Assembly: GCA_038062115.1 (NCBI GenBank)
Contig: JBBTXS010000004.1
Coordinates: 5,009 to 69,008 of the forward strand
Source: Patescibacteria group bacterium
GTDB taxonomy: Bacteria > Patescibacteriota > Microgenomatia > Levybacterales > UBA12049
Direction: 5' to 3'
Length of the DNA: 64,000 bases
The notes below the pieces were generated by a model that was not told the origin of the DNA, searched no databases, and saw only the letters and a program-made list of their open reading frames with translations. The position numbers were made by a program, and so were the translations under genes. This document shows, piece by piece, positions 8,529-51,626 of this stretch. Every line of letters begins with the position of its first letter. The first letter of the stretch is position 1.

Positions 8529-10229
8529 ATGAACGTAACGAAACCAAAAATTATACTGGTAGTAATTATTATAATAGCTGCTTTTCTGCGTTTTTATCAA
8601 TTAGGTAATAATCCTTCTTCTCTTACTTGGGATGAGGCGGCATGGGGATATAATGCTTATTCTTTAGGGATTGATGGAAAAGATGAGTTTGGTAGATTTT
8701 TGCCTCTTGATTATTTAGAGTCCTTTGGCGATTTTAAGCCCCCCTTGTATGCATATTTAGATATTATTCCTATCAAAATTTTTGGTTTAAATGAGTTTGC
8801 TACTAGATTTCCTTCGGCATTCTTTGGAGTATTGACAGTTTTGGTAACTTATTTTTTGGTAAGGAGAATATTTTCTTTTTCTCGAAATTCACCCCCGAGG
8901 AGTCGCTTTGCAACATCTCGGGGGTGGCCGAATGGGCTCCCCCGAGGTGAAAGTGTTGCGTTATTGTCTGCTTTTTTACTGGTTATTTCTCCTTGGCATA
9001 TTAATTTATCTCGAGCTGCGTTTGAGGCTAATGTTGCATCTTTCTTTATTGTTGCTGGAGTGTGGTTATTTCTAGCCGCAATTCAAAATAAGAAATGGCT
9101 TCTTTTGCTTTCTGTTTCTTCTTTCGTTCTTTCTATATACACATTTAATACGGCAAGAATAGTATCTCCAATTCTTTTTATACTTTTATCGCTAATCTTT
9201 TGGAAAGCCTTATGGAGAATCAAATACCAAGTCGTGGGAGCAACAATTGTTGGAATAGTTTTAATCCTTCCAATTGCGAGATTTTTGGTTTCGCCTCAAG
9301 CAAGTCTTAGGTTTAAAGAAGTTAATATATTTTCAGATATCGAAGTTATTGAAAGGACAAATCAAGAAATTGAAAATGACAAAAATATTATGTGGTCTCG
9401 CATACTTCATAATCGTAGGTTTGCATACGCAGTTGAATATATTAAGCACTACCTTGATAACGTAAGCCCTTCTTTTTTATTCCTCAAAGGAGATGGTAAT
9501 CCAAAATTTTCTACCCAGGATGTAGGACAAATGTATTTATGGGAGTTGCCATTTTTTATAGGTGGGATTTTATTGCTTTTTAGAAGAAGAGAAGGTAATT
9601 GGTGGATTGTTCCGTTATGGTTACTGATTGGCATCGTTCCGGCGGCAACTGCACGCGAGACTCCGCATGCTTTACGTATTGAGACAACATTGCCAACTTT
9701 TCAAATTATCGTTGCTTATGGCATCTATCAAGCAGTATCAAGTATTAAGTATTATGTATTAAGTAAAAACAAAAGATACGTTATACTTAGCTCTTTTATC
9801 TTACTACTTTTTGTGAATTTTCTATATTACATACATGGATATTATGCTCACTACCCTCGTGAGTATTCAGGAGAATGGCAGTATGGCTATAAAGAATCAA
9901 TAGAATATGTCAAGATGGTTCAGGATAAATACGATCAGATACGAATCACTTCAGCAATGGGTAGACCATATGTCTATTACGCATTTTTTACTAAGACTTT
10001 TCCTGAATCCTTTAGAAAAACTGCGATTGTTAAACGAGACGCATTTGGATTTGTTACGGTTTCAGGATTTTTAAAATATCGTTTTGCTGACAATCTAAAC
10101 TTCATTAAGGAAAAGACAAAAAAGGCACTGTACATAGATATTCCAGGAAGAGTTCACCCAAAAGGAGATATATTAAAAAGATTTTATTTGTTAAATGGGG
10201 CAGAGGTGCTTGTTGCTTATAGACTCTAA
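8529..10229 (+). CDS. GT39/PMT_2 (ArnT-like) lipid-carrier-dependent glycosyltransferase, paralog 1
   Basis: 566 aa. SLTWDEAAWGYNAYSLGIDGKDEFGRFLPL...FGDFKPPLYAY is the typical first-loop DE motif region of GT39/ArnT-like enzymes. Also ISPWHINLSRAAFEAN. Confidence 0.75.
   Translation: MNVTKPKIILVVIIIIAAFLRFYQLGNNPSSLTWDEAAWGYNAYSLGIDGKDEFGRFLPLDYLESFGDFKPPLYAYLDIIPIKIFGLNEFATRFPSAFFGVLTVLVTYFLVRRIFSFSRNSPPRSRFATSRGWPNGLPRGESVALLSAFLLVISPWHINLSRAAFEANVASFFIVAGVWLFLAAIQNKKWLLLLSVSSFVLSIYTFNTARIVSPILFILLSLIFWKALWRIKYQVVGATIVGIVLILPIARFLVSPQASLRFKEVNIFSDIEVIERTNQEIENDKNIMWSRILHNRRFAYAVEYIKHYLDNVSPSFLFLKGDGNPKFSTQDVGQMYLWELPFFIGGILLLFRRREGNWWIVPLWLLIGIVPAATARETPHALRIETTLPTFQIIVAYGIYQAVSSIKYYVLSKNKRYVILSSFILLLFVNFLYYIHGYYAHYPREYSGEWQYGYKESIEYVKMVQDKYDQIRITSAMGRPYVYYAFFTKTFPESFRKTAIVKRDAFGFVTVSGFLKYRFADNLNFIKEKTKKALYIDIPGRVHPKGDILKRFYLLNGAEVLVAYRL
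8884..8956 (+). repeat. GC-rich palindromic insertion, in-frame inside the GT39 CDS
   Basis: cacccccgag (8890-8899) pairs perfectly with ctcgggggtg (8917-8926). A third arm, ctcccccgagg (8937-8947), repeats the first. Strongly GC-rich against an AT-rich background. Translated as SRNSPPRSRFATSRGWPNGLPRGESV in a loop where GT39 homologs, as I recall them, run almost directly from ...LV.RIF to .ALLSAFLL. Confidence 0.8.
9733..9765 (+). repeat. Heptanucleotide repeat block (AAGTATT units) inside CDS
   Basis: cagtatc aagtatt aagtatt atgtatt aagta, translated SSIKYYVLS. Reverse complement of the AATACTT units at 18557 and 29936. Confidence 0.9.
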
Positions 10230-10230
10230 A

Positions 10231-12024
10231 ATGAAAAGAAAAATTGTGTATCCTGTTTTGTTCGTAATTATTGTTATAGCTTCGGTATTAAGACTGTGGA
10301 AGTTAGGAGATGTGCCAATTTCCCCTAACTGGGACGAAGTTGCTCTTGGGTACAACGCATATTCTATTATGCAGACGGGCAGAGATGAATATGGCGAATT
10401 TTTGCCAATTATTTTACGATCATTCGATGACTATAAGCCTGCCTTATATGCTTATTTTGCAATACCATTTATTAAGCTATTTGGCTTAACTGTTTTTGCT
10501 GTTAGGTTGCCCTCTGCTATTTTTGGGATATTAACAGTTCTAGCTACTTATTTTTTGGTTAAAGAAATATTTGGGATAAACCACAAATTCAAAATCACAA
10601 ATTCCAAACAAATTCAAAATTCTCCGCCAAAGGCGGATCAACCTCTGGCTAAAAATGATCAAAATTCAAAATGTGCATTGGAAAATGGAAAATGGAAAAT
10701 GGAAAATACGATTCCTTTACTTTCTACATTCTTACTTGCTATTTTTCCATGGCATGTTCAGTTTTCAAGGATTGCCTTTGAATCCAATGTTGGACTTGCT
10801 TTTAATATATTTGCTGTGTTGTTTTTTCTGTGGGGATTACGACGTCCATGGCTTCTATTGCTATCTGCGCTAACTATGGGTATAAATTTATATGTTTATC
10901 AAAGCGAGAAAGTTTTTACTCCGTTACTGCTTCTTACTTTAATTATAATTTTTAGAAAATCACTTTTTTTGCTCCCAAAAAAATATATAGTAATGGCTGG
11001 AGCCTTAGGTCTTATTATCTCTTTGCCAATAATTCATTATACATTTACTAACAGAGAGGCATTATCTAGAGCTCAAGATGTAAGCATACTTGCCAATACA
11101 ACGCCACTTCTTGAAGAAAATGTCCAAAGACTTGTTAGAGATAAAGAAAAACAGGACTATCTTGGTCTTATTTTAGACAACAGACGAGTCACGTATCTAA
11201 AAAACATTGCTTCAGGATATTTGTCTCATTTTGATCTCAACTGGCTGTTTATAAAAGGAGATATAGCACGTCATCATGCTCCAAACATGGGGATTTTGTA
11301 TCTCTGGGAATTACCATTTTTAATGATTGGAATATATAAGCTATTGTTCGGTTCGTCAGTTGACGGATTTACTAAAAAAATAAAAGCGTTTATATTCATC
11401 TGGTTTTTAATAGCTCCCATTCCTGCTTCTGTAACCAGTGATGTGCCTCATGCTGTACGTACTTTAAACTTTCTGCCGACTTTTCAGATATTTATATCAA
11501 TAGGGTTAATAACAGCTATAGGGTTGGTATCAAGTATTAAGTATCAAGTATTAAGTATAAGGATAAAATATATATCCTTTGTTTTTTTCTTTTTCTTTTT
11601 TGCCTTTAATTTCTCATATTATGTTAATCAATACTTTGTTCAGCAGAATTATTTTCATGCTCAATACTGGCAATATGGATATAAGGAAATTGTTGAATAT
11701 CTTATGCCTATTCACAATAAATATAATAAAATAATAGTTTCCAATACGCAACCTTTAGATCAGTCCTATATATTTTTCCTATTCTACTCAAAATATGATC
11801 CAGTAAAGTATTTAGCAACAGGCGGAACTAGATCAGGTATTCAAGAGGAAGACGGAAATAAATTTTTAAATTTTGAATTTAGGAAATTCAATTATTATGA
11901 AGAAAAAGGGCATAATATTCTTTTGGTTGGAAGCGGGTCAGACTTTAAAGAAATCTTTAAAACTATAAAAAGAGTTGATTATCCAAATGGGGAAGTAGCT
12001 ATTAGAGTTGTTGAGAAAGATTGA
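10231..12024 (+). CDS. GT39/PMT_2 (ArnT-like) lipid-carrier-dependent glycosyltransferase, paralog 2
   Basis: The track ORF starts at 10195, inside the upstream gene. The ATG at 10231 directly follows the upstream TAA (10227-10229). ISPNWDEVALGYNAYSIMQTGRDEYGEFLPI...FDDYKPALYAY and IFPWHVQFSRIAFESN are colinear with 8529-10229. Confidence 0.75.
   Translation: MKRKIVYPVLFVIIVIASVLRLWKLGDVPISPNWDEVALGYNAYSIMQTGRDEYGEFLPIILRSFDDYKPALYAYFAIPFIKLFGLTVFAVRLPSAIFGILTVLATYFLVKEIFGINHKFKITNSKQIQNSPPKADQPLAKNDQNSKCALENGKWKMENTIPLLSTFLLAIFPWHVQFSRIAFESNVGLAFNIFAVLFFLWGLRRPWLLLLSALTMGINLYVYQSEKVFTPLLLLTLIIIFRKSLFLLPKKYIVMAGALGLIISLPIIHYTFTNREALSRAQDVSILANTTPLLEENVQRLVRDKEKQDYLGLILDNRRVTYLKNIASGYLSHFDLNWLFIKGDIARHHAPNMGILYLWELPFLMIGIYKLLFGSSVDGFTKKIKAFIFIWFLIAPIPASVTSDVPHAVRTLNFLPTFQIFISIGLITAIGLVSSIKYQVLSIRIKYISFVFFFFFFAFNFSYYVNQYFVQQNYFHAQYWQYGYKEIVEYLMPIHNKYNKIIVSNTQPLDQSYIFFLFYSKYDPVKYLATGGTRSGIQEEDGNKFLNFEFRKFNYYEEKGHNILLVGSGSDFKEIFKTIKRVDYPNGEVAIRVVEKD
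10578..10709 (+). repeat. Composite low-complexity insertion in CDS: degenerate heptamer arms, a small GC hairpin, and (TGGAAAA)x4
   Basis: cacaaat tcaaaat cacaaat tccaaac aaattca..., then tccgcc-aaa-ggcgga (10623-10637), then tggaaaa x4 (10679-10706). Translated NHKFKITNSKQIQNSPPKADQPLAKNDQNSKCALENGKWKMENT. Same loop position as the insert at 8884-8956 in the paralog. Confidence 0.85.
11527..11559 (+). repeat. Heptanucleotide repeat block (AAGTATT/AAGTATC units) inside CDS
   Basis: gtatc aagtatt aagtatc aagtatt aagtata, translated SSIKYQVLSIR. 29 of 31 nt identical to 9735-9765. Confidence 0.9.
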
Positions 12025-14867: not shown

Positions 14868-16400
14868 ATGAAAAAATTGTTTATTTTTTTTGGGTTATTG
14901 ATTATATTAGCAATTGGTTCTTGGCTTAGGTTAAGCGGAATTATAAGTAATTCTTTTGCATTTACTTACGATGTAGGGCGAGATATGCTTGCTGTTGAAA
15001 ATATAGTGGTTAATCATAAAATTACTCTTATTGGGCAAACAACAGGAGTAGAGGGTATTTTCTATGGGCCTTGGTGGTACTTTATATTAAGTATTCCATT
15101 TTTTATCTTTTCCGGTAACCCGCAGGGAATTGCATTTTTTATGGCGTTTATTGGAATTATCACTATTTTCCTGAGTTACATTGTTGGGGAAAAGATAGGT
15201 GGAGTTTTTTTAGGAATAATTTTTTCTGCTTTTATTAGCATTTCTTCTATAATGGTTTTGTCTTCTTCCCAAATATGGAACCCAAATCCAATACCCTTTT
15301 TTGTCTTACTTGTCTTTCTGATGCTTTATATGCTCTCTTTTGACAGTAAACCCCGCACCCACGGGGTGCGGGGTAAACCTAAAACTTCTAAAGCAAAATA
15401 TCTTTTCCTACTTGGTTTGCTCTTGGGCATTACCATAGATATGGAAATAGTATTTGGAATTCTGCTTTTTTTGGGTACTTGCATATCTTTAATTCTTATT
15501 TTTAGAAAAAGATTGAGAATAAAAGAAGTACCTTTTTTTGCCTTAGGATTATTATTTATTTTTTCTCCACGGATTATTTTTGAGGTTCGGCATGATTTTT
15601 TGATGACCAAGACATTTATTAACGCTTTTAGCAATGGATTCATGTCGCCTAAGCACTTTTCTATTTTTGACGCACTTTTTAGCAAACTAGGCTCTTTATT
15701 TAACGTATGGAATGCTACATTAGCAGGACAAAACAGCACAGTTGGTTTTATTTTGATAGCCTTCGTTTCTTTATGCTTGCTATTTTTCTATAAAAAGATA
15801 GAGGATACACAGAAACAATTTATGCAGACTATTTTTATTGTAATTGTAATTTTTTTAATAGGCTTTATTTTTTTAAATCAGGCTATTTGGCCTCATTATC
15901 TTGTTGGTATTCCAGTTTTTTATATTCTTCTTGTAAGCTTAATCATTAATACAACAAAGATTGTCTTAAAAAAATCTTGGGTTATTTTCTTTATATTGCT
16001 TGTTTTATTTTGGATTAATCTAAACCCTATGCAGGTTTTAGACAATATTAGGAAGCCTATATGGGAGGGAAATGCCGCAGTATATCGTAATCAAGTTGCT
16101 GTTATTGATTATGTTTTTAATGATGCAAAAGGCAAAGATTTTAAATACATTGTTTATACCCCAGCCGTACATGATTATACTTACAGGTACTTGTTTTCTT
16201 GGTATGGAAAGAAAAAATATAGCTACATCCCTGGCCAAAAAAACACTGGATTATTTTATGTAATACTGGAGCCTGACTATGATTTGCCGTTTCGATTAAA
16301 AGATTGGTTAAACGATAGAGAGGACGATGGAACAATACAAAAAGAAAAGATAGTAAAAGGAGGGATAACAGTTCAGACAAGGATATTGAACATTGAATAA
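14868..16400 (+). CDS. Polytopic GT-C-like membrane protein, FGFDQ family (paralog 4)
   Basis: The track start GTG 14841 lies inside the hairpin, so the ATG at 14868 (MKKLFIFFGLL) is preferred. FTYDVGRDMLAVENIVVNHKITLIGQ...GPWWYFIL. C-terminal ...YLFSWYGKKKYSYIP. Confidence 0.65.
   Translation: MKKLFIFFGLLIILAIGSWLRLSGIISNSFAFTYDVGRDMLAVENIVVNHKITLIGQTTGVEGIFYGPWWYFILSIPFFIFSGNPQGIAFFMAFIGIITIFLSYIVGEKIGGVFLGIIFSAFISISSIMVLSSSQIWNPNPIPFFVLLVFLMLYMLSFDSKPRTHGVRGKPKTSKAKYLFLLGLLLGITIDMEIVFGILLFLGTCISLILIFRKRLRIKEVPFFALGLLFIFSPRIIFEVRHDFLMTKTFINAFSNGFMSPKHFSIFDALFSKLGSLFNVWNATLAGQNSTVGFILIAFVSLCLLFFYKKIEDTQKQFMQTIFIVIVIFLIGFIFLNQAIWPHYLVGIPVFYILLVSLIINTTKIVLKKSWVIFFILLVLFWINLNPMQVLDNIRKPIWEGNAAVYRNQVAVIDYVFNDAKGKDFKYIVYTPAVHDYTYRYLFSWYGKKKYSYIPGQKNTGLFYVILEPDYDLPFRLKDWLNDREDDGTIQKEKIVKGGITVQTRILNIE
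15347..15377 (+). repeat. 23-nt GC-rich palindromic element flanked by TAAA direct repeats, in-frame inside CDS
   Basis: TAAA ccccgcaccc-acg-gggtgcgggg TAAA (arms 15351-15360 and 15364-15373). 23 + 4 = 27 nt = 9 codons, translated within DSKPRTHGVRGKPKT. Paralogs have a much shorter loop here (TKEGKTKYLF, LQGSGKFFLL). Confidence 0.85.
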
Positions 16401-17924
16401 ATGAAAAAAATATTTAATAAATTTATAAAAAAGAAGAATTTTACATTTTTCCTATTGGCTATTGTAATTTTGGGGTCTATTCCGCGATCAATAGAGATAA
16501 TTAGTGGAAATTTTCTTTTTGGGTATGATCAGGGAGTTTTTTTCCAAGCAGTTAAGGAGATTATTGTTAATCATAAGCTTACTCTTATTGGTACGGAAGT
16601 AGGGGGTGGAGGTTTTTTTCAAGGTCCAGGATGGTACTATCTATTGTCAATATCTTTTTATCTATGGAGGGGAGATCCTTATGGAGGAATGATGCTCATG
16701 CTTATAGTAGGGGTTTTGACCATAGCGCTAAGTGTAGTTTTTGGAAGAAAAATATTTGATGGCAAAACTGCGTTAACAATTGGATTTTTTGTAGCCGTAT
16801 CTCCAGCAATTATAGCTCAATCTAGATTTATTTGGCCTCCTTTTGTGATATCTTTACTTTCTGTTTTCTTTGTTTTTTTTCTCTATAAAATTTTGCAAGG
16901 GTCGGGTAAATTTTTTCTTTTACTCACATTTATAGTTGGGCTCATGTTTCACTTTGAGACTGCTACGGGAGCAACTCTTCTTATTCAATTATTAATTATC
17001 TCGCTCTTATTTTTTATAAAGAAAATGGTTTCCTTGAAGTTTTATACTCTTGGCTTGTTGAGTTTTCTTTTTACGCAATTAAGTCTTTTTGTATTCGATA
17101 TCAGGCATGATTTTTTTAATATAAAGGGAATTATTAAAATGTTTACAAATAGCAATAAAGAAGATTCATTATTAAATAGAGTTGATTTGATAAGTAATCA
17201 TATTAGCGTTTTTAGGCAAAATTTCCTTTCTACTTTTCAGATGGCTGATTTGATTTGGCCACTTTTGCTTATAGTTTTATTTATTGGTCTAACATTTTAC
17301 TTTAAGGACAAAAAAAATAAAAAAGAAAAAAAATGGTTGGTTCTATATCTTGCAACTAGCCCTTTAACTTTATTTATTGTGTTTATTTTTTACCCATCAA
17401 CTATGTGGGAATGGTGGATTTTGGAATTAATGATTTTTTACTGTTTTTTATTTGGAGTTATTTTAACTTATTTATTAAAAAATAAATTAATGAGATTTTT
17501 AGTAGTGGCAGTATATATTATTTTCTTTTTATCTTTTGTAAATAAAACCATATTTTTTTATAACAATGACTTTAACGACTTTGGGGGTACGCAAAAAATA
17601 AAGGGAAAGATTGAGGCAATTGATTATATTTATAAAGACGCAAAGGGAAAGCAATTTGGGCTTTTGGTTTTTACTCCACCGGTTTACACTTATGCTTATG
17701 ATTATTTAGTATGGTGGCATGGAAAGAGAAAATATGGTTACATTCCTTTTCAAGAAAAGAAAGACACATTTTATCTACTTATTGAGCAGGATTATGCAAA
17801 GGCATGGAGTTATAAGGGGTGGCTCGAGACGGTTATAAAAACTGGTACAATACTTACGACAAAAGAACTGCCTAGTGGTTTTATTATTCAAAAACGTTTT
17901 AAAGATGAAAAAAGTAAGATATAA
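16401..17924 (+). CDS. Polytopic GT-C-like membrane protein, FGFDQ family (paralog 5)
   Basis: 507 aa. FGYDQGVFFQAVKEIIVNHKLTLIGTE...GPGWYYLL. The C-terminal module is nearly colinear with 13289-14824 (DFGGTQKIKGKIEAIDYIYKDAKGKQFGLLVFTPP...WHGKRKYGYIP...GWLETVIKTG). Confidence 0.65.
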   Translation: MKKIFNKFIKKKNFTFFLLAIVILGSIPRSIEIISGNFLFGYDQGVFFQAVKEIIVNHKLTLIGTEVGGGGFFQGPGWYYLLSISFYLWRGDPYGGMMLMLIVGVLTIALSVVFGRKIFDGKTALTIGFFVAVSPAIIAQSRFIWPPFVISLLSVFFVFFLYKILQGSGKFFLLLTFIVGLMFHFETATGATLLIQLLIISLLFFIKKMVSLKFYTLGLLSFLFTQLSLFVFDIRHDFFNIKGIIKMFTNSNKEDSLLNRVDLISNHISVFRQNFLSTFQMADLIWPLLLIVLFIGLTFYFKDKKNKKEKKWLVLYLATSPLTLFIVFIFYPSTMWEWWILELMIFYCFLFGVILTYLLKNKLMRFLVVAVYIIFFLSFVNKTIFFYNNDFNDFGGTQKIKGKIEAIDYIYKDAKGKQFGLLVFTPPVYTYAYDYLVWWHGKRKYGYIPFQEKKDTFYLLIEQDYAKAWSYKGWLETVIKTGTILTTKELPSGFIIQKRFKDEKSKI

Positions 17925-19578
17925 GAAATATTTATTTTTTATTGGCTTAATAGTTTTATCTTTTATTCCTCTTTTTGACTTACTTCATCCAGGGCTTCCA
18001 ATTACGCATGACGGTCAAGACCACGTGGCTCGTATTGCTAATTTTTACCAAAATCTAAAAGAAGGAAATATTATTCCAAGGTGGGCGCCGAATCTAAATT
18101 GGGGATACGGACATCCAATTTTGATGTTTTTGTATCCTCTGCCTTCGTATTTAGCTTCATTATTCCACTTTTTTGGATTCAGTCTGGTTGATAGCGTAAA
18201 ATTAGTTTTTGGCATATCTTTTATTTTGAGTGCTGTGGCAATGCATCTTTTTACTAAGGAATTACTAAATGATGAAAAAGCAGCATTTTTAGCAAGTTTA
18301 CTTTATGTGATTGCTCCATATAGATTCGTTGATTTATATGTGCGTGGTGCTGTTGGTGAACATGTTGCGTTTATTTTTCCACCCCTTATTTTTTATTTTC
18401 TCTTGAAGTTATCTAAGAAGTTTTCCAAGTGGTATCTTTTGGGAGGATCTTTGTCTTTGGCAGGACTGATTCTGTCACATAACGCAATAAGCTTAATGTT
18501 TTTTCCATTATTTTTTTTATACATTATATATCTTGTTTGGGGAAGCAAAGATAGAAAATACTTAATACTTAATACTTTCTACTTAATACTTTTGGGTTTA
18601 GGCTTATCTGCATTTTTCTTTATACCTGCATTTATGGAAGGAAAGTATACCTTGCGAGATATAGTTACAAGTGGTGGAGAATATAAGGCCAGTTTCGTAA
18701 TATGGAAAGACTTTTTCTACTCAACATGGAGTTATGGAGGTACGCTTGCCTTTAGTAAGCAAATAGGCATGATGCATTGGATTGGTATATTTAGTAGTGT
18801 TATTGCCACATATTATCTATATAAAAATAAAAATAAATTATGGATGGTGAGCTTAGGTGGCTTTCTTATTTTCTGGATAACGCTATTTTTAATGACATCT
18901 GCGTCTGCCACAATTTGGCAATCGATAACCCTACTTCAAAAGTTTCAATTTCCATGGAGATTTCTTTCCCTTACTGTTTTTTTAAGCGCATTGTTGGGCG
19001 CAATAGGATTGCAATTATTTAATGGTAAACATAAGACAGCTTTTCTATTAATACTTACCGTAGCCCTTTTGCTGGTAAATAAAGACTATTGGCATGCAAA
19101 TGGATTCTTGCAAAAACAAGAGAGTTTTTATAGCGGAATCTATAACGGTACTACAGATACCGGTGAGAGCGCGCCCATTTGGTCGGTAAGATTTATGGAA
19201 AAGAGGGCAAAAGCCAATATGGAGGTGATTGCAGGTGACGCAAGAATACGAGGAATAAAAAGAACCTCAACGAGTCATAAATACAAAATAATCGCAACGG
19301 AAAGATCAAGAATTAGGGAGAATACTTTATATTTCCCGGGTTGGGATGTTTTTGTAAACGGGAATAAGGCAGATGTTGAATTTCAGGATTCTCTCAATAG
19401 GGGTCTTATAACATTTTTTGTAGAAAAAGGAGAGAATGACGTTTATATTAAATTTAACGAGACAAAACTGCGGCTAGTTGCAGATATAATTACCGCCGCA
19501 ACATTGGCAGTTGTAGTATCCTATTTAGCATTTGGGCTCAAAAAGAAGTATAATCCCCGGGATGAAAAAGAAAAATAA
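17905..19578 (+). CDS. Polytopic membrane protein, THDG family (PTPS-related-domain / YfhO-like GT-C candidate), paralog 1
   Basis: Start at ATG 17905 (MKKVRYKKYLFF) by analogy with paralog 29290. HPGLPITHDGQDHVARI...PRWAPNLNWGYGHPILMFLYPLPSY. QFPWRFLSL. C-terminal YFPGWDVFVNGNKADVEF...ENDVYIKF is like YfhO tails. Confidence 0.55.
   Translation: MKKVRYKKYLFFIGLIVLSFIPLFDLLHPGLPITHDGQDHVARIANFYQNLKEGNIIPRWAPNLNWGYGHPILMFLYPLPSYLASLFHFFGFSLVDSVKLVFGISFILSAVAMHLFTKELLNDEKAAFLASLLYVIAPYRFVDLYVRGAVGEHVAFIFPPLIFYFLLKLSKKFSKWYLLGGSLSLAGLILSHNAISLMFFPLFFLYIIYLVWGSKDRKYLILNTFYLILLGLGLSAFFFIPAFMEGKYTLRDIVTSGGEYKASFVIWKDFFYSTWSYGGTLAFSKQIGMMHWIGIFSSVIATYYLYKNKNKLWMVSLGGFLIFWITLFLMTSASATIWQSITLLQKFQFPWRFLSLTVFLSALLGAIGLQLFNGKHKTAFLLILTVALLLVNKDYWHANGFLQKQESFYSGIYNGTTDTGESAPIWSVRFMEKRAKANMEVIAGDARIRGIKRTSTSHKYKIIATERSRIRENTLYFPGWDVFVNGNKADVEFQDSLNRGLITFFVEKGENDVYIKFNETKLRLVADIITAATLAVVVSYLAFGLKKKYNPRDEKEK
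18557..18591 (+). repeat. Heptanucleotide repeat block (AATACTT)x3 + TCTACTT + AATACTT inside CDS
   Basis: Read directly; translated KYLILNTFYLIL. 33 of 35 nt identical to 29936-29970 in the paralog. Confidence 0.9.
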
Positions 19579-19604: not shown

Positions 19605-20030
19605 CAACCAATTTCGGGAAATGTCGCAGAATCTTGCATAGAAATAAAACTAAGAGAGGCAGGATTAAAAAAAGATCTAAATTACAAACGAAGGTATAAG
19701 CGGAGCGATTTTACATTTTTTCATCCCGGTTTTAAAAGTTCTAGTGATATTCATAGGGTAGAAGTTAAGAATGTTGCCCTAAGAGAGAGGGGTGTTAGAG
19801 GATTATCATTTGACGGTGATAGTATGGTAGGGTTTTTTAATGAGGCTAAAGAATTTACTAAAGAGACTGTTAAAATTATAGATAAGTATTGTCGTAAAAC
19901 TGGAGGCTACTGTTATGTTCCGCCTGAAATCTTGAAAGAAATATTATCAAAACACAAAGCGAAAAGATTTAAATCAAACGACGAATTTGTAAGCGATATG
20001 AATCAATTTGTGAAATCAGGAATTATTTAA
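19605..20030 (+). pseudogene. Open frame without a credible start, convergent with the DNA methyltransferase; possible truncated restriction-endonuclease remnant (only the last 68 codons follow an ATG)
   Basis: The frame is open from 19605 (after TAG 19602-19604) to 20030: QPISGNVAESCIEIKLREAGLKK...HRVEVKNVAL...MVGFFNEAKEF... The first ATG is at 19824. An E-x-K-like string (ESCIEIK) sits at the extreme N-terminus with no upstream PD/D element. The 3' end overlaps the MTase 3' end by 15 nt. Confidence 0.3.
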
Positions 20031-20978
20031 GGGTGGTCTCCAAAAATCTAATATGTATTCAAACGTTGTTCCGAGTGTAATATAATTTGAAGGCCAACCA
20101 AAAATCCCGACGCCATTAACTAAATTCCTTCTGTCCCAAATTATAGTATTTCTAAGTTTGTATCCTGCTCTTTCGATCTCCTCGATTACATATATGTGAA
20201 GTGGAACCCTGTTATTTTCCCACCAAAGGTCAGTAATATTAATTACGCAATGGGCTTTGGGCTTGTGGAGCGGTAGCAATTTTTTGTAAATCTCTCCTAT
20301 TGCTTTTGCAAATTTTTTTGGCTCCATAGTCCCGAGATCTCTTGGATTACTTGAGTATTGTTGAACACTATCGTAATGTTCGTTTTTACGTTGATCTCCT
20401 CGTATGCTTTTGTTTTTTCTTTTTCTATTTAGCATGTTGGCATATGGAGGAGAAGTAACAGAGAGTGAAACAGTGTTTTTGTTGAGATAGTTAGAAATAT
20501 TGATGGCATCGTCACATATTGTTATTTGTTTGGTATCATCATAGATATCCAATTGTGATAGTCTTGTATTTGCATAATCAAGATATTTTTGACTTAGGTC
20601 AAAACCCACAGCGTTTCTTTGCAAGTCTTTTGCAGCGACCAAAGTTGTTCCAATGCCTACAAATGGATCCAGAACAAGCTCTCCCTTGTGAGTGAATATT
20701 TCTATACACTTGGTCGGAAGGTCTATAGGAAATACTGCTGGATGGATTTTTTTGTCTCGAACATCTCTTTTCTTGTACGCAAATTCCCATATAGCGACCT
20801 GATTTTTCATCCATTGTTTAGCGTCTAAACAGTTTATATGATTTGGTGGACAGGAACATGCTTTTTCGTGTCCTATGGAAAGTTTTAAAGAAGTTTTATC
20901 TTTTTTAGTTTTATATTTTTTAATATCACTTCCAAGTTCCATGTATGTTGGAACAGTTATAAGGTTAGGCATAGACAT
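20016..20978 (-). CDS. DNA methyltransferase, N4-cytosine/N6-adenine (N6_N4_Mtase type) with permuted motif order
   Basis: 320 aa. HPAVFPIDLPTKCIEIF...LVLDPFVGIGTTLVAAKDLQRNAVGFDLSQKYLDYANTRL (AdoMet motif I region) precedes VSLSVTSPPYANM (catalytic motif IV). A typical IIWDRRN-type block lies near the C-terminus. Confidence 0.8.
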   Translation of the reverse strand: MSMPNLITVPTYMELGSDIKKYKTKKDKTSLKLSIGHEKACSCPPNHINCLDAKQWMKNQVAIWEFAYKKRDVRDKKIHPAVFPIDLPTKCIEIFTHKGELVLDPFVGIGTTLVAAKDLQRNAVGFDLSQKYLDYANTRLSQLDIYDDTKQITICDDAINISNYLNKNTVSLSVTSPPYANMLNRKRKNKSIRGDQRKNEHYDSVQQYSSNPRDLGTMEPKKFAKAIGEIYKKLLPLHKPKAHCVINITDLWWENNRVPLHIYVIEEIERAGYKLRNTIIWDRRNLVNGVGIFGWPSNYITLGTTFEYILDFWRPPLNNS

Positions 20979-21364: not shown

Positions 21365-22129
21365 ATGGCGACGGTTTCGGTGGTTTTAGCAACGTATAAC
21401 GAGGAAGAAAACTTACCATCGTGTTTGGAGTCGGTAAAAGACTTGGCAGATGAGATAGTAATAGTTGATGGATCATCAACGGACATAACTGTTCATGTTG
21501 CCAAAAAATATAAAGCAAAGATTTTAGTAACAGATAATCCGCCAATTTTTCATATTAATAAACAAAAAGCTATAAATATGGCGACAAAAGACTGGATTTT
21601 GCAACTTGATGCGGATGAAAGGGTTACGCCAGAACTTGCTAAAGAAATCAAATCACAAATCACAAATCACAAATCACAAATTCATGGTTATTGGATTCCT
21701 AGAAAAAATTGGTTTTTGGGAAGGTTTTTGATGAAAGGCGGACAGTATCCTGATTATACTCTAAGGCTTTACCGCAAAGGCAAAGGGAGGCTACCTCAAA
21801 AAAGCGTTCATGAGCAGGCTATTGTTGATGGAAAAACAGACTATCTTATACATCCTTTAATTCATATTGCGGATCCTAATTTTGCTAGGTATTTGAAGCG
21901 TTTTGATCGTTATACAGACTTAATAGCAAAAGAATTAAAAAGAAAAAAAATAGGATATAATCCAATGGTAGGAATAAAATATATGTTTGGTTTGCCTGTT
22001 TGGTGGTTTTTGTTCACATATATTCGTCATAAGGGTTTTATGGATTTTTGGCAAGGGTTTGTATTTTCATTTTTTTCGGCAATGAGATTTAGTGTTGGAT
22101 ATATAAAATATATAAAAATGCATGGTTAA
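21365..22129 (+). CDS. Family 2 glycosyltransferase
   Basis: 254 aa. VSVVLATYNEEENLPSCLESV...IVIVDGSSTD...LQLDADERV (DXD-type) are GT2 hallmarks. Confidence 0.75.
   Translation: MATVSVVLATYNEEENLPSCLESVKDLADEIVIVDGSSTDITVHVAKKYKAKILVTDNPPIFHINKQKAINMATKDWILQLDADERVTPELAKEIKSQITNHKSQIHGYWIPRKNWFLGRFLMKGGQYPDYTLRLYRKGKGRLPQKSVHEQAIVDGKTDYLIHPLIHIADPNFARYLKRFDRYTDLIAKELKRKKIGYNPMVGIKYMFGLPVWWFLFTYIRHKGFMDFWQGFVFSFFSAMRFSVGYIKYIKMHG
21645..21681 (+). repeat. Heptanucleotide tandem repeat (AAATCAC)x4 with partial flanking units inside GT2 CDS
   Basis: aaatca aaatcac aaatcac aaatcac aaatcac aaat (perfect units 21650-21677), translated KSQITNHKSQI in a loop after LDADERVTPELAKEI. Confidence 0.9.
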
Positions 22130-24653: not shown

Positions 24654-24797
24654 TGTCATTTCGAGCTTGACGGGTTACCGTACGGTAACCCGTCTTGTCG
24701 AGAAATCTTTATCACCGTAGTTGCGAGAGATCCCTCGGCTTCGGGAGGCACTGTCTGGTGTATCCCTTCGCTCGGGATGACAGGTTATAAGGCGAGC
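24654..24797 (+). mobile_element. MITE-family variant carrying a nested 24-26-nt perfect palindrome
   Basis: The 5' end tgtcatttcgagcttg matches MITE A/B. Then comes gacgggttaccg-ta-cggtaacccgtc (24669-24694) bracketed by cttg...cttg, then tcgagaaatc as in A/B. The 3' end gctcgggatgacaggttataaggcgagc resembles the 3' end of the CDS-embedded copy at 30306-30327. Confidence 0.7.
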
Positions 24798-29289: not shown

Positions 29290-31032
29290 ATGAAAGGTAG
29301 ATTATATTCGTTCTTAGCAGTTGTCACAATTCTATTTTTTGCGTTTTTAGCAGGTTTTGCTCTTTTGCATCCTGGGCTGCCGCCTACTCATGATGGCGAG
29401 TATCATGTTATTAGGTTTTATGAATTTGACAAGACATTAAGAGATGATGATTGGTACCCTCGTTGGGCTCCAGACTTAAATAACGGTTTTGGGATTCCAC
29501 TTTTTAACTATGTCTATCCCTTGCCAAACTATTTTTCCTTCATATTGCATCTATTTGGAGTAAGTTTTATTGATGCTTTTAAGCTTAATATGTTTTTTGC
29601 CACAATAATTGGTTCAGCATTTTTTTATTTATGGGCAAGAGAGTTTTGGGGAACAATGGGCGGCGTTGTTTCTTCGGTTTTCTATACCTTTTCTCCATAT
29701 CATTTCGTAGAAATTTATATTAGGGGTTCTGTTGGAGAGGTGTGGGCATTAGCTTTTTTCCCTGCGTTTTTGTGGGCATTTACAAGATTTGTTAAAAATA
29801 AACAAAAAATATTTTTGGCATTTTCTTCTTTATTTTTGGCATTAATTATATTTTCTCACAATATTCTAGCCTTAATGTTTTTCTTTTTCGCTTTATCTTA
29901 CATTGTTTTTTTAATTGCTCAAGTAACGAATAAGAAATACTTAATACTTAATACTTTACACTTAATACTTATTAGTCTTGGCTTATCTTCTATATTTTGG
30001 TTACCTGCAATACTGGAGAGTAACCTTGTAAAAGGACTTGAGATTTTTGATTTAACCGCTCATTTTCCAGATTTATATCAATTGTTAATTCCTTCTTGGG
30101 GATCGGGATTTTCAGGCGAAAGCTTAAACAATCAACTTTCATTTCAAATAGGAATTGCGAATTTATTGGCAGTATTATTAAGTATATTGTTGGTTACTTT
30201 TAAAATATGTAATTTTCGCATTTTTCGTCATTCTGGGGAGCGTAGCGACTCCAGAATCAAAAACAGATTCTGGACAAGACGGGTACCAGACGGTAACCCG
30301 TCAAGCCAGAATGACGGTAAGGCGAGCGCCGTTATTTTCTTTCTGGTTTTCTTTTTCTTTACTTTCTTTTTGATGCTCAAAGCATCTCAACCCATCTGGA
30401 ATAATGCTCCACTAATGAATTACTTTCAATTCCCATGGCGTTTTTTAAGCCTTGAAATTATATTTTCCTCATTTTTGGCTGGAAGCATTATATATTTTTG
30501 TAAATCTAAGATTCTCGCAATTTTCTTGATACTTCTTACTTTTTCTTTAGGGATAGGATACACAAAACCAGCTTATTATCATTACAGAGATGATAATTAT
30601 TATCTCACCCGGTCAAATTTTATCGATGGAACAAATAGCCCTGGTAATGTTTTTAATACAATCTTTTTTAAAACAGATCTAAAAAAACAAAAAGAAAAAT
30701 TATTTTTTTTAGAGGGTAGTGGAAAAATTAATCAAGAGATAGTTAAAAGCACGCGGTATGCTTTTGATATAAAAGCAGAGAAGGATTCAGAAATAAGAGT
30801 AAATACAGCTTATTTTCCGGGATGGGTTATTAAATTAGATGGCAAAAGAATAAAACCTAAAATAGCGAGTAGTGGACTATTTTCATTTAGTATTCCAGAA
30901 GGCCAACACCTTGTTGAGATCAAGTTTACGGATACTCCTGCAAGGATTATAGGAGCATTTGGCTTTATTTTATCATCGTTTATTCTTATTGCTTTGTCTA
31001 TTAGGGTTGTGTTTGCTACAATTAGAAGATGA
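29290..31032 (+). CDS. Polytopic membrane protein, THDG family (PTPS-related-domain / YfhO-like GT-C candidate), paralog 2
   Basis: 580 aa. HPGLPPTHDGEYHVIRF...PRWAPDLNNGFGIPLFNYVYPLPNY, QFPWRFLSL and C-terminal YFPGWVIKLDGKRIKP...QHLVEIKF are colinear with 17905-19578. Confidence 0.55.
   Translation: MKGRLYSFLAVVTILFFAFLAGFALLHPGLPPTHDGEYHVIRFYEFDKTLRDDDWYPRWAPDLNNGFGIPLFNYVYPLPNYFSFILHLFGVSFIDAFKLNMFFATIIGSAFFYLWAREFWGTMGGVVSSVFYTFSPYHFVEIYIRGSVGEVWALAFFPAFLWAFTRFVKNKQKIFLAFSSLFLALIIFSHNILALMFFFFALSYIVFLIAQVTNKKYLILNTLHLILISLGLSSIFWLPAILESNLVKGLEIFDLTAHFPDLYQLLIPSWGSGFSGESLNNQLSFQIGIANLLAVLLSILLVTFKICNFRIFRHSGERSDSRIKNRFWTRRVPDGNPSSQNDGKASAVIFFLVFFFFTFFLMLKASQPIWNNAPLMNYFQFPWRFLSLEIIFSSFLAGSIIYFCKSKILAIFLILLTFSLGIGYTKPAYYHYRDDNYYLTRSNFIDGTNSPGNVFNTIFFKTDLKKQKEKLFFLEGSGKINQEIVKSTRYAFDIKAEKDSEIRVNTAYFPGWVIKLDGKRIKPKIASSGLFSFSIPEGQHLVEIKFTDTPARIIGAFGFILSSFILIALSIRVVFATIRR
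29936..29970 (+). repeat. Heptanucleotide repeat block (AATACTT)x3 + TACACTT + AATACTT inside CDS
   Basis: Read directly; translated KYLILNTLHLIL. Same architecture and codon phase as 18557-18591. Confidence 0.9.
30226..30327 (+). mobile_element. MITE-family element embedded in-frame in the THDG-family CDS (about 102 nt, 34 codons)
   Basis: Perfect 11-bp IR cgtcattctgg (30226-30236) / ccagaatgacg (30306-30316). Inner palindrome acgggtaccagacggtaacccgt is bracketed by caag...caag. Tail gtaaggcgagc is shared with 24654-24797. Translated FRHSGERSDSRIKNRFWTRRVPDGNPSSQNDGKAS. The paralog 17905-19578 has no counterpart (YKNKNKLW). Confidence 0.8.
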
Positions 31033-37914: not shown

Positions 37915-38027
37915 ATGACTGGGTCACAATTGTCATTTCGAGCTTGCCGAGAAATCTCCTTCAACGAGATTCCTCGACTCGCTCACGCTCGCTCGGAATG
38001 ACAAATGGGTATTTATGACCCAGCCAT
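37915..38027 (+). mobile_element. MITE copy B (about 113 bp) with a 9-bp target-site duplication ACTAATATT
   Basis: Direct repeats actaatatt at 37906-37914 (containing the flippase stop TAA 37908-37910) and 38028-38036. Termini are atgactgggtcacaa and the reverse complement of atggctgggtcataa. Same internal structure as copy A. Confidence 0.85.
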
Positions 38028-50421: not shown

Positions 50422-51195
50422 ATGAAAGTTATAATTTTGTGCGGAGGAATTGGATATAGATTAAAAGAGGAAACAGAGTTTAAACCCAAACCCATGGTTC
50501 TTATTGGCGGAAAGCCTATTTTGTGGCATATTATGAAAATATATGCACACTATGGTTTTAATGATTTCATTATAGCGTTAGGATATAAAGGGGATTATAT
50601 AAAACAATATTTTCTTAATGAAAAAAACATGACTCATGATTTTACTCTTAATACCTTAACCGGCGATACAAAAATACATGAAAATAATATCGGTTCTGAT
50701 AATTTTACAATAACTTTTGTTAATACAGGAGAAGGAACCCTTCCCGGAGAAAGAATACTAAGAGTTAAGGACTACATTCCAAAGGAAGATAAAAATTTCA
50801 TGGTTACTTATGGCGATGGATTATCTGATATTAATATTAAAGAATTAATAAAATTTCATGAAAAACAGAGAACAATAGGAACTGTGACAGGCGTTCATCC
50901 GCGCAGTAAATATGGATTGCTTGGTACCGACAAAAATAAAATAGTAACTTCGTTTATCGAAAAACCCGTTCTAAAAGAATGGGTAAATGGAGGATTCATG
51001 ATTTTTAAAAAAGATTTTTTTAATTTTTTAAGAGAAGGTGAAATGGAGCACGAAGCGTTAAAACGCCTTTTAGGAAAAAAACAACTTTCTCTCTATATAC
51101 ATGATGGATTTTGGCATTCAATGGATACATATCCTGATGTAGATAGCCTCAATCGCTATTGGAAAGAAGATCCAAGATGGAAAGTGTGGCGATAA
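50422..51195 (+). CDS. rfbF: Glucose-1-phosphate cytidylyltransferase
   Basis: 257 aa. MKVIILCGGIGYRLKEETEFKPKPMVLIGGKPILWHIMKIYAHYGFNDFIIALGYKG is nearly the canonical RfbF N-terminus. Confidence 0.85.
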   Translation: MKVIILCGGIGYRLKEETEFKPKPMVLIGGKPILWHIMKIYAHYGFNDFIIALGYKGDYIKQYFLNEKNMTHDFTLNTLTGDTKIHENNIGSDNFTITFVNTGEGTLPGERILRVKDYIPKEDKNFMVTYGDGLSDINIKELIKFHEKQRTIGTVTGVHPRSKYGLLGTDKNKIVTSFIEKPVLKEWVNGGFMIFKKDFFNFLREGEMEHEALKRLLGKKQLSLYIHDGFWHSMDTYPDVDSLNRYWKEDPRWKVWR

Positions 51196-51206
51196 ATGAA
51201 TTTCAA

Positions 51207-51592
51207 ATGAACGAGAAAAGTTACGATATTCACGAGAGGATTTTTAACTTTGTAATAAGTGTTATTGAGTTTTTGAATAAAATTCCAAAAACTTCTACGA
51301 ACCTAATCTTTATCGGTCAGTGTACACGTTCGGTTACTTCTATGGGGGCAAATGACCAAGAAGCGGATGAGCACTAACTAAAAAAGATTTCGTTCATAAA
51401 TTTACGGATGTTCGAAAAGAAGGTAAAGAAACAATTTTCTGGTTAAGAGTTATAATTCGAACAAACGATAAGAACTATTCACCAGAAGGAGAAAGACTGA
51501 CTTCTGAGGGAAACGAAATAGTTGGAATCGTTAGTACAATTATCAAAAATGCTTCAAAGAACGAAAAAGCGCGAAAACAATTTGATATTTGA
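51207..51592 (+). pseudogene. Frameshifted four-helix-bundle protein (23S rRNA intervening-sequence protein / Avd-like family)
   Basis: The N-terminal half (MNEKSYDIHERIFNFVISVIEFLNKIPKT...SMGANDQEADEH*) stops at 51375-51377. The family continuation ALTKKDFVHKFTDVRKEGKETIFWLRVI... runs in the -1 frame from 51371 to TGA 51590-51592. A 1-nt loss near 51369-51371 explains it. Confidence 0.7.
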
Positions 51593-51626
51593 AATTTGAA
51601 ATTGGTATTATTTGAAATTAAATGAT

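Follow-up and report, generated by a model that had tools for sequence, protein, structure and literature searches.

Within a 64,000-nucleotide (nt) stretch of contig JBBTXS010000004.1 from a Patescibacteria group bacterium (referred to below as the window), two neighboring genes for membrane glycosyltransferases, GT39-1 (G1) and GT39-2 (G2), share a nearly identical block of 31 nt, although the two genes have otherwise diverged. Our analysis favors, albeit with considerable reservation, the reading that this block is a coding heptanucleotide simple sequence repeat (SSR) that is kept in frame by selection, and that the G1 copy was probably patched from G2. In the mechanism we propose, the turn between the last two membrane helices would be a long-lived hot spot for 7-nt arrays in Levybacteria. 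Slipped-strand mispairing, or an equivalent copying process within the array, would regenerate and homogenize the units, as the pattern of variation suggests, and selection for an intact protein would remove those products that are out of frame or contain stops. As selection would keep the protein intact, only net 21-nt or compensated changes would survive and the arrays would stay at about 4-5 units; as it would remove stops, units with a stop would survive only where the in-frame TAA is interrupted; and as both the site and the array type are shared, G1 and G2 would carry nearly the same block. The match of 29 of 31 nt should thus be considered an expected property of a shared repeat type and not evidence for a switch.

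The shared block in G1 and G2

The two genes and the arrays that they contain are the following (ORF, open reading frame; aa, amino acids):

8529-10229, + strand: GT39-1 (G1), the upstream paralog, a GT-C membrane glycosyltransferase of 566 aa (from ORF and Pfam)
10231-12024, + strand: GT39-2 (G2), the downstream paralog, 597 aa from the ATG at 10231, in an ORF that opens at 10195 (from ORF and Pfam)
9735-9765, + strand: G1 heptamer array, gtatcaa gtattaa gtattat gtattaa gta, encoding VSSIKYYVLS, with TAT at the would-be in-frame TAA
11527-11558, + strand: G2 heptamer array, (gtatcaagtattaa)x2.3, encoding VSSIKYQVLSI, with CAA at the would-be in-frame TAA

Both proteins match Pfam families above the curated cut-offs (for G1, PMT with 32.1 bits against a cut-off of 22.7 and PMT_2 with 28.1 bits against 26.1; for G2, PMT_2 with 36 bits), and the G2 orthologs, which are 55-100% identical and come from Candidatus Levybacteria, are named GT39 by NCBI. 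It should be noted that the database entry for G2 has its start codon upstream of the ATG at 10231.

Our comparison confirmed both strings exactly as they had been quoted in the initial annotation, with 29 of 31 nt identical between 9735-9765 and 11527-11557, as well as the codon phase of 0 given for both, the G1 block starting 1206 nt after the ATG at 8529 and the G2 block 1296 nt after that at 10231. The codons are GTA TCA AGT ATT AAG TAT TAT GTA TTA AGT in G1 and GTA TCA AGT ATT AAG TAT CAA GTA TTA AGT in G2. The divergence of the host genes outside the block, also claimed at the outset, holds as well: in a global codon alignment, the genes are identical at 38% of amino acids and 52% of nucleotides, and BLASTP reports 37% identity between the proteins. 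The block is the top 31-nt window of this alignment (mean, 16.4 identical positions; standard deviation, 4.2), the next independent block having 26, and the binomial probability of 29 of 31 is 6.7e-7 per window, or about 1e-3 when corrected for some 1,700 windows. The longest exact match within the blocks is 18 nt, and the same codon is used at all nine identical residues, as compared to 43% gene-wide (P = 5e-4). The match between G1 and G2 is real and beyond chance.

Tandem Repeats Finder describes the two blocks as arrays of period 7 with 4.6 copies and 88% matches, at 9734-9765 and 11527-11558, and the arrays lie at 72% of ORF length in the GT39 genes. The G2 array is also a perfect 14-nt repeat, (GTATCAAGTATTAA)x2.3, with 100% matches, and the longest perfect 7-nt periodicity in the G1 array is about two units. 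A perfect (AAGTATT)n of at least three units contains TAA in all three frames of both strands and, as TAA appears in every frame, cannot exist inside a gene. In the frame of G1 and G2, the perfect repeat would read GTA TTA AGT ATT AAG TAT TAA GTA, and both mismatches between the two blocks fall in the seventh codon, namely the would-be TAA. The near-perfect arrays found elsewhere consist of units that are stop-free on the coding strand.

The block had initially been placed at the junction between the membrane domain and the soluble domain. An AlphaFold2 model of G2, computed from 33 aligned sequences (mean predicted local distance difference test score (pLDDT), 74; predicted template modeling score, 0.75), corrects this placement: the block lies where the chain turns between the last two membrane helices. 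It corresponds to residues 433-443, which comprise the end of the helix at 415-438, the turn at 438-441 (pLDDT <50) and the start of the helix at 445-474, and the well-predicted C-terminal soluble domain begins only near residue 478. The turn is rich in Lys and Arg, lies just before the helix that connects to the soluble domain, is presumably cytoplasmic and would seem to tolerate sequence change.

A heptamer hot spot in Levybacteria

To place the block in its evolutionary context, we considered 80 loci collected from species-representative genomes of Candidatus Levybacteria (Microgenomates, candidate phyla radiation), the group in which the homologs are found, and scanned 694 kb of these loci. 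Closer relatives were added, namely L082 (the G2 of which is 84% identical in protein), L083 and L084, where L numbers designate individual genomes. The source population is present in groundwater assemblies from Hainich. Both copies of the tandem G1-G2 pair were recovered in 67 of the sampled genomes.

The site of the block was defined between the conserved anchors PHA(L/V)R...LPTFQ and WQYGY. A period-7 score of at least 9 was found at this site in 21 of 75 G2 copies and in 10 of 74 G1 copies, as compared to 1.4% of random 84-nt windows from the same loci; in the random windows, periods 5, 6, 8 and 9 reach such scores in about 0.3% of cases. The units are internally homogeneous and differ by lineage, with AATTTCA x5 in L009, GTATCAG x4 in L011, ATATCAA x4 in L019 and GTATTCA x4 in L010. 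A GACTTAA-type array is found in both paralogs of L004, and the AAGTATT-type array occupies the site in the window, in L082, L005, L016 and L027, and in the G1 of L054.

The differences between related copies follow the unit. G2 segment lengths peak at 63-66 nt and 84-87 nt, that is, in classes 21 nt apart; L019 equals L018 plus exactly three ATATCAA units; and L012 differs from L009 by two units and a 1-nt compensating indel. When the G1 array of L030, (gtatcgagtattca)x2.3, is compared to that of G2 in the window, both differences are repeated in each copy. Such comparisons support the view that variant units propagate within arrays. Period 7 also stands out in the scanned loci as a whole, where the arrays of at least 3.5 copies comprise 48 of period 3, 27 of period 7 and none of periods 4-6 and 8-15. 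The period-7 arrays comprise 3.6-8.9 copies (median, 4.6), and 24 of the 27 lie inside ORFs of at least 150 aa.

In the G1/G2 genes of L023, L033, L008, L039 and L044, (CTATTTG)x4 and (TTGTTAT)x4 arrays encode the last membrane helix (KLFAICYLLFAIF). As heptamer arrays also encode this helix in some lineages, the repeat-prone zone reaches beyond the turn.

Origin of the G1 copy

Equal rates of evolution in the block and in its flanks had been named at the outset as part of the outcome that would speak against the proposed readings of the block. The rates are not equal and the block is decoupled from its surroundings. The G2 block is identical to that of L082 at 30 of 31 positions (flanks, 82%), to that of L083 at 23 (81%), to that of L003 at 21 (76%) and to that of L005 at 29 (67%). 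For G1, the closest orthologs match the block at only 21, 13 and 23 of 31 positions with flanks of 72-79%, while 29 of 31 positions match the G1 of L054 (flanks, 61%) and, equally, the G2 of the window itself.

Most G1 orthologs have no array, and the commonest G1 length class is short and array-free. Among the closer relatives, the G1 genes of L082, L001 and L003 carry a G2-like A-type array together with a G2-like last helix, and those of L083 and L002 carry none. The G1 gene of the window carries a G-type array, with G at four unit positions where the G1 of L082 has A, and its best matches among 75 G2 segments are the G2 of L082 and its own G2. When these comparisons are considered together, the G2 array is older than the split between the window lineage and L082, and the G1 array was probably overwritten in the window lineage by a short patch copied from G2, either through non-allelic conversion or through template switching. 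Exchange of short patches between the paralogs, with or without the last helix and not as deletions, does occur around this segment.

Two broader explanations of the G1-G2 match were considered and rejected. General concerted evolution of G1 and G2 within genomes would make the G2 gene of the same genome the best match, and this was the case in only 1 of 67 genomes, with the median score at background. A preferred unit specific to the genome is not compatible with G2-type and g4-type arrays (g4 is described below) being common to orthologs in other genomes; the window also holds AATTTCC, TGGAAAA and CAAATCA arrays.

Tests of a chimera and of a switch

The mechanistic proposals made in the initial annotation, namely a fusion of the two genes and a frameshift switch, were largely not borne out. 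In the first, the two blocks serve as direct repeats 1.8 kb apart, recombination between which deletes the interval and fuses the catalytic domain of G1 to the C-terminal domain of G2. The blocks are indeed direct repeats in the same phase and at homologous positions, such that the product would be in frame, and a G2-like array with the last membrane helix is found in the G1 not only of the three relatives named above but also of L005 and L052, as patch exchange. However, 145 of 146 full-length genes are concordant on both sides of the block (G1/G1 or G2/G2), the only discordant gene being a near-tie (scores of 175 and 169), so that no convincing chimera with respect to the N- and C-termini was found among them. 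The tandem pair is retained in the 67 genomes noted above, and the longest exact match, 18 nt, is shorter than what RecA usually needs to recombine efficiently. We thus regard the blocks as very unlikely indeed to serve as a substrate for such recombination.

In the case of the switch, the claim that a 7-nt unit slips has to be separated from the claim that slippage turns the gene ON and OFF. The former is supported on evolutionary time scales, as unit gain, loss and homogenization are evident from the 21-nt steps and from the propagated variants. The latter is not, as all 151 homologous G1 and G2 copies are in frame and stop-free, and an ON/OFF switch exists in no detectable sense. The comparison of sibling strains that had been suggested as a check relied on the consensus assemblies L085 (99.965% identical), which spans the loop-1 arrays and the arrays of both GT39 genes, and L081 (99.85% identical), which spans the g4 array, and no gaps or indels were found across these five arrays. 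A flank-anchored, variable-gap search for unit-number variants of the G2 array gave no match in metagenome contigs, a collection evidently without close relatives. As slippage takes place on evolutionary time scales, rare OFF variants must arise; nothing indicates that these are maintained.

A contingency locus, in which 7-nt slippage reversibly switches GT39 OFF and ON and so varies the surface glycans, as (AAGACTC)n does for neuO, is accordingly an explanation to which we assign little weight. It is true that the unit length is not a multiple of three and that the arrays lie within ORFs, that the hosts are envelope glycosyltransferases, which are classic targets of such switches, that three perfect heptamer arrays are found in other glycosylation genes of the same cluster, and that evolutionary gain and loss of units is clear. 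Nonetheless, the arrays do not form long perfect tracts but are interrupted and hold only 4.6 units; they lie far into the ORF; they never exceed about nine units in the 694 kb scanned; the sibling assemblies show no indels; and ON and OFF alleles were not found among the genomes, all 151 copies being in frame, as compared to neuO, for which 65.6% of complete genomes are OFF (PMC13001214).

An assembly artifact was also considered and rejected, as the arrays do not differ between independent assemblies and recur in dozens of genomes. Separately, L083, L084 and L085, three independent contigs from the same or related populations, all start within G1, some 870 nt ahead of the G2 start (about 9340-9360 in the window), which suggests a recurrent assembly break at this point.

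The AAGTATT unit in a second paralog pair

A search of the window for AAGTATTAAGTAT, allowing for up to two mismatches, gave 28 matches where 6.8 ± 2.7 were expected. The matches cluster at four places, namely the two GT39 blocks and two antisense arrays at 18556-18594 and 29935-29973, which lie in another pair of genes:

17875-19578, + strand: g3, a PTPS_related membrane protein, host of an antisense AAGTATT array (from ORF and Pfam)
18556-18594, + strand: g3 (AATACTT)x5 array (the reverse complement of AAGTATT), encoding KYLILNTFYLILL, with TTC at the would-be TAA
29290-31032, + strand: g4, a PTPS_related/YfhO-like membrane protein, paralog of g3 (from ORF and Pfam)
29935-29973, + strand: g4 (AATACTT)x5 array, encoding KYLILNTLHLILI, with TTA at the would-be TAA

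The g3 and g4 proteins are about 35-40% identical, while their arrays are identical at 35 of 39 nt, and the best window of the g3/g4 codon alignment has 34 of 36 identical positions (mean, 19.0; standard deviation, 4.1). A second, unrelated paralog pair thus repeats the phenomenon, with the AAGTATT unit on the other strand, and all four AAGTATT arrays in the window are translated. In g4 orthologs that are about 66% identical in protein, the array is 34-37 of 39 nt identical.

These arrays bring forward the possibility that only the protein matters, that is, that the peptide VSSIKYxVLS or KYLILNTxYLIL is selected and that an AT-rich codon bias makes the DNA both alike and periodic. In g3 and g4, the peptide is strongly conserved, with none of 120 aligned orthologs differing in length from the g4 of the window, and in a genome of 33% GC the choice of codons is narrow. 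However, this explanation fails for G1 and G2, where a change of the DNA unit brings a change of the peptide (ISNFKFQISNFQ, VSGIRYQVSGIR, FSIQYSVFSF and others) but leaves the 7-nt periodicity in place. Moreover, the same codon is used at 9 of 9 to 11 of 11 identical residues in the arrays, as compared to 36-70% gene-wide, and each of 11 comparisons gave a higher codon identity at identical residues for the block than for the whole gene (P from 0.06 to 0.0003). Minor codons on which the repeat depends (AAG, TAC and CTT) are also used in the arrays, and such minor codons are retained at the g3/g4 arrays as well. Codon choice at the site thus appears to be conserved beyond what the protein requires. 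The protein-level reading is more plausible for g3/g4 than for G1/G2 and, taken as a whole, is improbable in our judgment.

The recurrence of the unit could instead point to a mobile or functional nucleic-acid element, where the AAGTATT array is kept for a role in DNA or RNA, such as protein binding or as an insertion target. The unit is found in four genes of two unrelated families and in both orientations, synonymous sites are conserved across distant orthologs, an identical 32-mer appears in distant genomes and GC-rich mini-inserts are nested inside arrays. Furthermore, (AAGTATY)3 is widespread in unrelated metagenomic contigs, with at least 120 stretches, and none of the 80 examined was homologous to the four host genes. 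The GC content of these contigs ranges from 22% to 70%, and 13 of the 55 arrays with enough flanking sequence lie in ORFs, such that the AAGTATT-type unit would appear to be a widespread heptamer repeat that is usually non-coding elsewhere. In Levybacteria, however, the arrays lie at fixed orthologous positions and always in frame, and different lineages carry their own units at the same site. In a simple consensus scan, the arrays showed neither promoter-like nor terminator-like sites, no Rfam family matched within 8-32 kb of the window, and neither terminal repeats nor target duplications were seen at the arrays. As the arrays are found in opposite orientations, a shared RNA function is unlikely. 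Overall, we consider such an element to be unlikely.

A related and bolder proposal is that these arrays of about 35 nt are actively maintained as DNA-level elements in envelope-glycosylation genes, acting either as frameshift switches of low rate or as sites of binding, recombination or insertion. Maintenance at the DNA level, if true, would account for three features: the only non-triplet repeats in these genes have a period that breaks the frame, the arrays retain their periodicity and synonymous sites between genes with only 37-66% protein identity, and unrelated genes carry the same units, in both orientations. We hold this to be a rather unlikely proposal, albeit one worth keeping in mind.

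Weighing the in-frame repeat

The reading of the block as a coding heptamer SSR that is kept in frame, with a G1 copy patched from G2, has some weaknesses that need to be considered. No slippage event was directly observed, and the sibling assemblies are identical. Three observations are not obviously explained by purely neutral slippage, namely the constant length in all 120 aligned orthologs at the g3/g4 site while the g4 array stays a repeat at the DNA level, the recurrence of identical 32-mers in distant genomes, and the prevalence of a frame-breaking period of 7 over periods 6 and 9. No flanking homology to G2 is recognizable around the G1 patch, and classical gene conversion is thus not demonstrated. 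Finally, the G1 of L054 carries a 32-mer identical to that of the window G2, although the genes are only 37% identical in protein; the G2 of L054 itself is 55% identical to the window G2. The G2 of L005 matches the window G2 32-mer at 30 of 32 positions. As the same array recurs in distant genomes, convergence on the same few repeat versions that are compatible with an ORF is a live alternative source of the G1 array.

Other period-7 arrays and inserts in the window

About eight period-7 arrays are found in the window, including the G1 and G2 blocks, and among periods 4-15 only period 7 forms near-perfect arrays. Those outside the two paralog sites described above include the following:

1888-1921, + strand: perfect (AATTTCC)x4.9 in the GT2 gene at 1742-2458, encoding ISNFQFPISNF just after the DDGSTD motif
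21649-21681, + strand: perfect (CAAATCA)x4.7 in the GT2 gene at 21365-22129, encoding KSQITNHKSQI
10578-10707, + strand: composite in-frame insert of G2 after membrane helix 3, made up of an AAATTCA-like array, a ccgccaaaggcgg hairpin and (TGGAAAA)x4.1

The arrays at 1888-1921 and 21649-21681, being perfect, are the best slippage candidates of the window; both lie in GT2 genes with soluble domains. Within the composite insert of G2, (TGGAAAA)x4.1 forms a perfect array at 10679-10707.

In-frame inserts have a second hot spot in the GT39 genes, namely the loop that follows membrane helix 3 (8880-8969 in G1 and 10560-10710 in G2). In G1, the insert is a GC-rich palindrome (cacccccgag...ctcgggggtg), and in G2, residues 121-155 of the insert loop are predicted to be disordered (pLDDT of 30-42 in the AlphaFold2 model). 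GT39 orthologs have 0-45 extra residues in this loop, including KLEIGNWKLEI, which corresponds to antisense (AATTTCC)n. Islands of high GC content (at least 60% over 45-85 nt), many of them palindromic, are also seen at 15331-15395, 30270-30338, 24710-24788 and 37956-38006 in a window of 33% GC, several of them in frame inside genes. In two relatives (L083 and L001), a 30-nt insert, cccgccttcgccaaggcttcggcgggcagg, lies inside the G2 heptamer array, and the G1 of L001 has a different insert of 24 nt. Such GC-rich inserts resemble in-frame palindromic mini-elements.

Two further regions of the window deserve mention. The segment at 51190-51610 has no long ORF, a stop interrupts one of its frames and it is followed by a short intergenic AATTTGA heptamer array; by eye, it may resemble a four-helix-bundle gene of the type found as 23S rRNA intervening-sequence proteins. 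The ORF at 20016-20978 lies on the - strand amid a glycosylation cluster that is otherwise on the + strand, is flanked by g3 and the GT2 gene and, judging from its translation, looks like a candidate DNA methyltransferase.

Comparison with known heptamer systems

The searchable literature yielded no account of heptamer repeats, either for Patescibacteria or for the candidate phyla radiation. If the picture presented here holds, a lineage of the candidate phyla radiation carries a translated, frame-breaking 7-nt microsatellite that is long-lived at fixed turns and loops of glycosyltransferases. This would bear on the origin of heptamer-specific slippage, given the old and unexplained over-representation of such repeats in bacteria, and on the origin of low-complexity peptides and small in-frame inserts in proteins of the candidate phyla radiation. 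It would also mean that near-identical short blocks in diverged paralogs should not be taken as recent recombination or as contingency loci unless population data are at hand.

Non-allelic gene conversion resembles the present case in that a near-identical patch is found in diverged paralogs, with the recipient departing from its orthologs and the donor matching its own. It differs in that flanking homology is not visible here and in that the patch sequence recurs in distant genomes.

The hmw1A and hmw2A genes of Haemophilus influenzae are alike in that a 7-bp tandem unit is tied to genes for surface structures. The hmw repeats lie upstream, in the promoter/5' region, and their copy number grades expression, whereas the present arrays are translated.

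For neuO of E. coli K1 (CUS-3 prophage), 3-53 perfect (AAGACTC)n units have been described at the 5' end of the gene, with repeat numbers mixed within one culture (PMC13001214). As in the present case, the 7-nt unit lies in the ORF of an enzyme that modifies surface glycans and full length is reached only if the number of units is in frame, with three units adding one 7-residue peptide repeat. In G1 and G2, however, the 4-5 units are interrupted and located at 72% of ORF length, and all 151 copies keep the frame.

The arrays also resemble the heptameric SSRs of Xanthomonas and cyanobacteria. Such SSRs are over-represented in many bacteria according to a 2007 report, as cited in PMC4692102, and a proposed cause is that the active site of the polymerase accommodates 7 nt of DNA (PMC4692102). 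Xanthomonas arrays mostly have four units and vary between related species; the units described are GGGAATC in Xanthomonas and GGGGAYT in Nostoc, and three tandem heptanucleotides are reported in Calothrix PCC7601 (PMC4692102). The arrays described here share with them the tandem 7-nt units, the copy number of about four, the excess of period 7 and the turnover at the same locus, including variation between orthologs. They differ in that the known arrays are described as intergenic and often G-rich (G-quadruplex-forming), whereas those of Levybacteria are A/T-rich, translated and locked in frame, with 24 of 27 found in ORFs, and reside at fixed turns and loops of GT-C proteins.

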